This document shows, piece by piece, positions 43,908 through 44,693 of a stretch of DNA of 64,000 bases (position 1 is the first letter of the stretch; the number at the start of each line of letters is the position of its first letter). The stretch lies in the NCBI RefSeq assembly GCF_024502345.1, contig NZ_JALDNN010000001.1. One strand, given 5' to 3'. The position numbers were made by a program, and so were the translations under genes. The notes under the pieces were generated by a model. It made no database searches. It saw only the letters and a list, made by a program, of their open reading frames with translations, and was not told where the DNA came from. This DNA is from Escherichia coli. Its GTDB lineage: Bacteria; Pseudomonadota; Gammaproteobacteria; Enterobacterales; Enterobacteriaceae.

Positions 43908-43916
43908 CCCCTTGTT
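43908..43916. repeat. IS1 target-site duplication, copy 1 (ccccttgtt)
   Basis: identical 9-mer directly flanks the other IS1 end at 44685..44693. Confidence 0.9.
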
Positions 43917-43931
43917 GGTAATGACTCCAAC

Positions 43932-44435
43932 TTATTGATAGTGTTTTATGTTCAGATAATGCCCGATGACTTTGTCATGCAGCTCCACCGATTTTGAGAA
44001 CGACAGCGACTTCCGTCCCAGCCGTGCCAGGTGCTGCCTCAGATTCAGGTTATGCCGCTCAATTCGCTGCGTATATCGCTTGCTGATTACGTGCAGCTTT
44101 CCCTTCAGGCGGGATTCATACAGCGGCCAGCCATCCGTCATCCATATCACCACGTCAAAGGGTGACAGCAGGCTCATAAGACGCCCCAGCGTCGCCATAG
44201 TGCGTTCACCGAATACGTGCGCAACAACCGTCTTCCGGAGCCTGTCATACGCGTAAAACAGCCAGCGCTGGCGCGATTTAGCCCCGACGTATCCCCACTG
44301 TTCGTCCATTTCCGCGCAGACGATGACGTCACTGCCCGGCTGTATGCGCGAGGTTACCGACTGCGGCCTGAGTTTTTTAAATGGCGGAAAATCGTGTTGA
44401 GGCCAACGCCCATAATGCGGGCGGTTGCCCGGCAT
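43932..44435 (-). CDS. insB: IS1 transposase InsB' (expressed as an InsAB' frameshift fusion)
   Basis: 167-aa ORF recognisable as IS1 InsB (…[47 protein letters not shown]…). Confidence 0.9.
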
Positions 44436-44629
44436 CCAACGCCATTCATGGCCATATCAATGATTTTCTGGTGCGTACCGGGTTGAGAAGCGGTGTAAGT
44501 GAACTGCAGTTGCCATGTTTTACGGCAGTGAGAGCAGAGATAGCGCTGATGTCCGGCGGTGCTTTTGCCGTTACGCACCACCCCGTCAGTAGCTGAACAG
44601 GAGGGACAGCTGATAGAAACAGAAGCCAC
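44354..44629 (-). CDS. insA: IS1 InsA (transposition inhibitor / N-terminal part of transposase)
   Basis: 91-aa ORF with zinc-finger Cys (CPSCSAT…CSHC) and HTH; overlaps insB' as expected for the -1 frameshift arrangement. Confidence 0.9.
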
Positions 44630-44684
44630 TGGAGCACCTCAAAAACACCATCATACACTAAATCAGTAAGTTGGCAGCATCACC

Positions 44685-44693
44685 CCCCTTGTT
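44685..44693. repeat. IS1 target-site duplication, copy 2 (ccccttgtt)
   Basis: identical to 43908..43916. Confidence 0.9.

Follow-up and report, generated by a model that had tools for sequence, protein, structure and literature searches.

What kind of event split the pdeI (yliE) gene of this Escherichia coli chromosome, how much of the gene survives it, and does the split record selection or ordinary decay? The window analyzed here is the whole 64-kb stretch of DNA in which the gene lies. On its minus strand, the order is gsiD, the 5' part of pdeI, an IS1 element, the 3' part of pdeI, and dgcI (yliF), followed by rimO on the opposite strand. This is the gene order of E. coli K-12 MG1655 in reversed orientation. 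The features that bear on the insertion, together with minor features found elsewhere in the window, are collected in Table 1.

Table 1. Features of the interrupted pdeI locus and other features of the 64-kb window (coordinates in the window; pdeI codons and nucleotides counted in the restored gene).
Feature	Coordinates	Strand	Description
IS1	43917..44684	minus	complete, 768 bp; ends identical to IS1A of MG1655, 7 internal differences
Target-site duplication, dgcI-proximal copy	43908..43916		CCCCTTGTT; pdeI nt 2030-2038
Target-site duplication, copy on pdeI 5' side	44685..44693		CCCCTTGTT
IRL	44662..44684		IS1 terminal inverted repeat
IRR	43917..43939		IS1 terminal inverted repeat
insA	44354..44629	minus	91 aa, GTG start; 1 residue differs from K-12 InsA
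insB' frame	43932..44435	minus	open, 167-aa ORF
Frameshift site	44372..44381	minus	TTTAAAAAAC; programmed -1 frameshift giving InsAB' transposase
Truncated pdeI ORF	44680..46722	minus	680 aa: 679 native codons, GGG (Gly), TGA
Orphaned pdeI 3' end	43597..43916	minus	codons 680-782 and stop; has DDFGTG, EGVE, and R760-G-Y
pdeI codon 760	43663..43665	minus	Arg in place of the conserved Gln of the EAL QGY motif
dgcI (yliF)	42261..43589	minus	intact, 442 aa, GGDEF domain
Low-GC islet	11919..14463		2.5 kb, between ybjQ and ybjP
Islet ORF	12068..13867	minus	599 aa, pentapeptide repeats
Extra segment relative to MG1655	55353..55452		100 bp, fsaA-moeB intergenic region
naRNA4 match (Rfam)	55334..55411		REP-derived; overlaps the extra segment
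Second naRNA4 match	18116..18196
RybB	30870..30948

The inserted DNA is an IS1 by its length, its terminal repeats, the A6C arrangement of its -1 frameshift, its transposase model score, and its 9-bp duplication. As written on the given strand, the element starts with GGTAATGACTCC... and finishes with ...GGCAGCATCACC; its two ends (GGTAATGACTCC... versus GGTGATGCTGCC...) match at 18 of 23 positions. The conceptual InsAB' fusion (232 aa) scores 243.8 bits (E = 1.4e-72) against NCBIfam NF033558, 'IS1 family transposase', for which the cut-off is 100 bits. The closest known case we compared is the annotated IS1A of MG1655 (NC_000913.3 19796..20563), which has the same 768 bp, identical terminal repeats, the same insA/insB' layout, and the same A6C site, at 99.1% nucleotide identity. 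It differs from the present copy in genomic location and by seven substitutions, all of them internal (325-507), and the two InsAB' proteins differ at two residues. With frames and ends intact, the element is functional-looking and its sequence is compatible with transposition activity. The first-pass annotation had called a complete IS1 with both inverted repeats and intact insA and insB', and this description holds. The insA-insB' frames are co-oriented with pdeI and dgcI, and the element is the sole IS1 copy, and the sole repeat of any kind, within the window.

A 9-bp direct duplication of the target is typical of IS1, and the element is flanked by two perfect copies of CCCCTTGTT. Their identity stops at 9 nt and extends no further in either direction; two fixed positions would share a 9-mer by chance with probability 4^-9, or about 4e-6. 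In MG1655, the 9-mer occurs once in pdeI and the site carries no IS1, as the first-pass annotation had supposed. Eight close relatives, whose contigs are 99.88-99.98% identical to the window over ~22 kb (including GCA_001484475.1 and GCA_054852445.1), also have an empty site. Because the two alignment blocks overlap by exactly 9 nt in each of the eight, the target was single-copy, and nothing has been deleted or rearranged around it. The earlier proposal that the flanking 9-mers are a genuine duplication is thus confirmed by their single copy in MG1655 and in all eight relatives. A composite transposon or an IS1-mediated deletion was considered and ruled out, given one IS1 in the window and flanks collinear with the empty-site relatives. 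IS elements commonly cause misassembly in general, and an assembler could have misplaced an IS1 copy into pdeI. Three observations contradict this: the perfect 9-bp duplication is exactly what IS1 predicts, separate assembly of at least four further data sets gave an identical junction, and both flanks are collinear with those of the empty-site relatives. The artefact is effectively refuted, and we give it a negligible probability.

Deleting IS1 and one copy of the 9-mer restores a pdeI reading frame of 2349 nt and 782 codons, 98.3% identical to MG1655 pdeI with five amino-acid differences, which bears out the earlier statement that the frame is continuous across the insertion. The insertion point lies between nt 2038 and 2039. 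The truncated ORF retains the native start and promoter, and its terminal 5 nt derive from the IRL of IS1: the glycine codon takes one base from the duplication and two from IS1, and IS1 bases 3-5 supply the TGA stop. Two details given before need to be replaced. The element does not append 3 nt ahead of a stop, since two of its bases complete a codon and the stop itself is borne by IS1; and the loss is 103 residues (680-782), not about 75.

Where the break falls in the protein matters more than its length. In restored PdeI, Pfam places a CHASE9 domain at residues 35-150 and an EAL domain (PF00563) at 532-767, covering model positions 2-236 of 236 (E = 6.5e-68); no GGDEF domain is found above the Pfam threshold. 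The break follows residue 679, inside the EAL domain, so that 88 of 236 domain positions are lost and ~63% are kept. The truncated product retains CHASE9, the transmembrane and degenerate GGDEF region, and residues 1-148 of the EAL domain with its EALCR signature (562). It lacks the DDFGTG loop (685), a conserved lysine, the catalytic glutamate of EGVE (740), and the (Q/R)GY motif (760-762), all of which align to conserved positions in solved EAL phosphodiesterases. YliE itself is listed with the full catalytic and metal-binding consensus (Table 1 of PMC3484386). The first reading had placed the insertion after the EAL motif, and understated the damage: the cut lies within the Pfam domain and takes DDFGTG, EGVE, and (Q/R)GY with it. 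Judged from these motifs, the EAL domain is destroyed, not merely trimmed at its C-terminus. Because the catalytic motifs are lost, we infer from established EAL catalysis that the truncated protein would be unable to hydrolyze c-di-GMP.

The allele that received the IS1 already carried a substitution in a conserved motif. The restored gene has EALCR, DDFGTG, and EGVE, and codon 760 encodes arginine in place of the QGY glutamine. Glutamine occupies this position in 12 further E. coli PdeI variants examined (full-length or C-terminal) and in the two solved EAL structures for which we checked the alignment (5yrp and 2r6o). Since Q760R is also found in the eight empty-site relatives, it is older than the IS1 insertion and may have altered the enzyme beforehand. 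The first-pass annotation's 'otherwise intact gene' is therefore right about the frame, which is continuous and encodes a full-length protein once restored, but not about the conserved QGY motif.

What the truncation does to c-di-GMP is less direct than the domain loss would imply. The literature on intact K-12 PdeI is divided between its prediction as a phosphodiesterase and a report in which PdeI raises rather than lowers c-di-GMP: overexpression increased c-di-GMP ~11-fold, an effect that required G412 of the degenerate GGDEF region (PMC11651652). G412 is retained in the truncated protein. The direction of change is uncertain because the reported c-di-GMP-raising activity depends on a region that the truncation keeps, and the sign of any c-di-GMP phenotype is not predictable from sequence; 'simple loss of a phosphodiesterase' may mis-state the phenotype. 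The same report raises the prospect that the gene has been converted, not killed, with a stable truncated PdeI that keeps or exaggerates the c-di-GMP-raising activity. The G412-dependent rise and the native start and promoter of the ORF speak for such a change of function. However, domains cut at 63% of their length usually misfold and are then degraded, and PdeI has no GGDEF domain that passes the Pfam threshold; we regard this conversion as very unlikely. Our preferred reading of the product is a protein that has lost its EAL activity.

The consequences probably extend to the neighboring gene, a point absent from the first reading. The dgcI start lies 7 nt past the pdeI stop on the same strand, and a consensus scan found no promoter-like sites between IS1 and dgcI. 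This arrangement suggests that dgcI is probably co-transcribed with pdeI and would feel the polarity for which IS1 is classically known in either orientation. Because the gap is 7 nt, dgcI has no obvious promoter of its own, and IS1 is polar, dgcI transcription is likely reduced. The opposite outcome can be pictured: dgcI could be driven without the pdeI promoter, either by transcripts reading through from IS1 or by a hybrid promoter at the IRR. Older work describes hybrid promoters formed at the ends of IS1, and insA-insB' transcription is oriented towards dgcI. Yet the scan found no outward promoter-like site at the IRR, and its minus-strand matches downstream of IS1 fall only inside dgcI; furthermore, the IS1 promoter is known to be weak and auto-repressed by InsA. 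Activation of dgcI is, in our judgment, highly improbable, and lowered expression through polarity remains the expected effect.

The insertion appears to be young. The restored 782-aa PdeI exactly matches public proteins labelled E. coli (for example, KUH06488.1), with zero amino-acid changes in either pdeI fragment since the insertion. Such full identity to an uninterrupted E. coli allele marks the insertion as recent, as the first-pass annotation had supposed. The exact junction occurs in 0 of 5,426 complete RefSeq E. coli genomes and was not found in GTDB species representatives or in JGI metagenome contigs, and the best complete E. coli genome on the 25-kb left flank does not exceed 99.6% identity. 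Six public contigs encode the exact 680-aa product (ENA ERZ27268145, ERZ28657917, and ERZ773152; Logan SRR24000611; and others); these contigs enter the IRL of IS1 at the identical base and break inside the element; at least four independent public assemblies carry the same junction. We compared single-nucleotide differences between IS1-bearing and empty-site sequences over 10.7 kb. Four IS1-bearing sequences (the window, ERZ27268145, ERZ28657917, and SRR24000611) share a derived T at window position 51114, whereas G is found there in each of the eight empty-site relatives and in two outgroups; two more derived sites are nested inside the IS1-bearing group. Because the IS1-bearing sequences share the derived T, the comparison suggests that IS1 inserted once and was passed on within a small clade, which later diversified slightly. 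The allele had been called strain-specific; its absence from the complete genomes and the empty site of MG1655 agree with a narrow distribution, but its presence in at least four independent assemblies makes it lineage-specific.

Two leads on the origin and spread of the junction were discarded. A Shigella origin, suspected because of the 99.6% ceiling among complete E. coli genomes on the left flank, is rejected: apart from one IS the window is free of repeats, and both the restored protein and the 99.95%-identical draft assemblies are labelled E. coli. Strain B-1109, which covers 100% of a 24-kb query, proved a false lead, with its IS1 between mdfA and ybjG and its pdeI intact.

How often does IS1 strike this gene? 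We queried the 5,426 complete genomes with a chimera of restored pdeI and IS1, for which 80% coverage is reached only with IS1 within ~2 kb of the gene; the resulting counts ignore shared ancestry among genomes. For pdeI (GC 41.7%), a nearby IS1 was found in 66 of 5,426 genomes with the element in the same orientation, with the gene split in at least 43 of the 60 matches listed, and in 59 of 5,426 in the opposite orientation. The same-orientation copies occupy ~10 different positions within ~520 bp upstream of the present site, as judged from the match spans of the junction search. Two control loci were searched in one orientation each. The normal-GC gene ybiW (GC 54.6%) yielded 5 of 5,426, with the gene split in none, and a fragment of evgS (GC 40.4%) yielded 61 of 5,426, with a split in ~8 of the 40 matches listed. 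IS1 is therefore ~12- to 13-fold commoner at the AT-rich loci than at ybiW, and pdeI is in line with this. Altogether, ~2% of complete E. coli genomes have an IS1 interruption at pdeI-dgcI.

These counts bear on whether the insertion was selected. Inactivation of pdeI-dgcI could be favored in some niches, with IS1 merely the commonest mutational route to a parallel, adaptive loss. Such a history would account for IS1 in or beside pdeI in 125 of 5,426 complete genomes, at many positions and in both orientations, for a count ~13 times that of ybiW, and for internal splits commoner in pdeI than in the evgS control. Three lines of evidence weigh against it. First, AT-rich evgS draws the same number of IS1 copies (61 versus 66), so target preference alone explains the count at the locus. 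Second, the counts ignore shared ancestry; for example, 10 genomes among the matches listed share one site 256 bp upstream of the present one. Third, deletion of yliE in strain CFT073 gave no motility phenotype (PMC3484386). Target preference and dispensability are enough to explain the frequency of IS1 at pdeI. The higher share of within-gene insertions in pdeI fits weaker constraint and does not demonstrate selection; the higher split rate than in the evgS fragment may reflect some loosening of constraint on pdeI or selection acting against the gene. We consider adaptive parallel loss unlikely. Quite unlikely, in our view, is a broader version in which recurrent niche-specific selection favors inactivation or remodeling of pdeI-dgcI and the truncations are altered signaling proteins that keep the sensor and the degenerate GGDEF half but lose the EAL half; if true, such truncations would shift c-di-GMP, biofilm, or persister behavior and would not be dead genes.

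Taken together, the findings support the following account. A functional-looking IS1 transposed into pdeI at nt 2038/2039, duplicating 9 bp as is usual for IS1; the event is recent and took place in the ancestor shared by a small sub-lineage of E. coli. The gene now codes for a 680-aa protein with a CHASE9 periplasmic sensor, the membrane and degenerate GGDEF part, and ~63% of an EAL domain; it would not hydrolyze c-di-GMP, and dgcI transcription would probably be cut by IS1 polarity. The AT-rich pdeI-dgcI locus is a frequent IS1 target, and the allele is most likely a neutral or nearly neutral pseudogenization, not a special adaptation. We hold this account as a whole, from the recent clean insertion in a small clade through EAL loss and dgcI polarity to (nearly) neutral pseudogenization, with high confidence.

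The searches also turned up patterns of interest in their own right. Some complete E. coli genomes (GF31, Ec-2977, and TUM12357) have two IS1 copies within the pdeI-dgcI locus. The genomes sharing the site at 256 bp come from poultry, pork, fish, and humans, and their common site reflects either a clone that has spread widely or an insertion hot spot. In the evgS control search, plasmid-borne and second chromosomal evgA-evgS copies, 94-97% identical and each adjoining IS1, were found (for example, NZ_CP073948.1 and NZ_CP117004.1), which suggests IS1-associated mobilization of an evgAS paralogue.

Among the individual genomes, 40EC (NZ_CP070920.1) and LR4 (NZ_CM188749.1) likewise have an IS1-split pdeI, with a CHASE9 5' pseudogene, an EAL 3' remnant, and an intact dgcI. 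Their insertion sites differ from the present one, lying 256 bp further upstream in pdeI in 40EC and 21 bp upstream in LR4, whose IS1 variant is only 93% identical. A more distant likeness is the IS-driven decay of c-di-GMP genes in Shigella and pathogenic E. coli, for example dgcE of Shigella flexneri with an IS110-family element, where an insertion sequence also truncates a GGDEF/EAL signaling gene; such 'pseudogenes', according to that study, can keep residual function (PMC11327459). The gene, the IS family, and the organism all differ from the present case, in which the 64-kb window has one IS and the nearest relatives are labelled E. coli. A literature search for pdeI or yliE together with IS1 found no paper describing any pdeI::IS1 allele.

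The event is an ordinary IS1 pseudogenization of pdeI and not a new biological system; what is new is the insertion site in a small lineage. On its own it is minor, one more IS1 knock-out of a dispensable AT-rich signaling gene. It has three uses. First, since none of the 5,426 complete genomes has the junction, it serves as a clean lineage marker. Second, it provides a natural strain with truncated pdeI and probably reduced dgcI, alongside near-isogenic empty-site relatives (GCA_001484475.1 and GCA_054852445.1), and such a pair could help probe what PdeI does in c-di-GMP control and in the formation of persisters, where its role is disputed. Third, the ~2% frequency is a reminder for annotators that IS1 interrupts pdeI-dgcI in complete E. 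coli genomes.

Elsewhere in the window, the low-GC islet between ybjQ and ybjP has a GC content of 0.28-0.37, compared with 0.51 for the window; in MG1655, the ybjQ-ybjP interval is only ~47 bp. The pentapeptide repeats of the islet ORF (Pfam PF13599) lie at residues 365-439. The ORF gave no PADLOC match, and its match to the Hailong effector HalA (NCBIfam) is partial and sub-threshold, at 23 bits against a cut-off of 250. The fsaA-moeB intergenic region has a 100-bp segment in excess of MG1655, which one of the two naRNA4 matches overlaps, and RybB is also encoded in the window.
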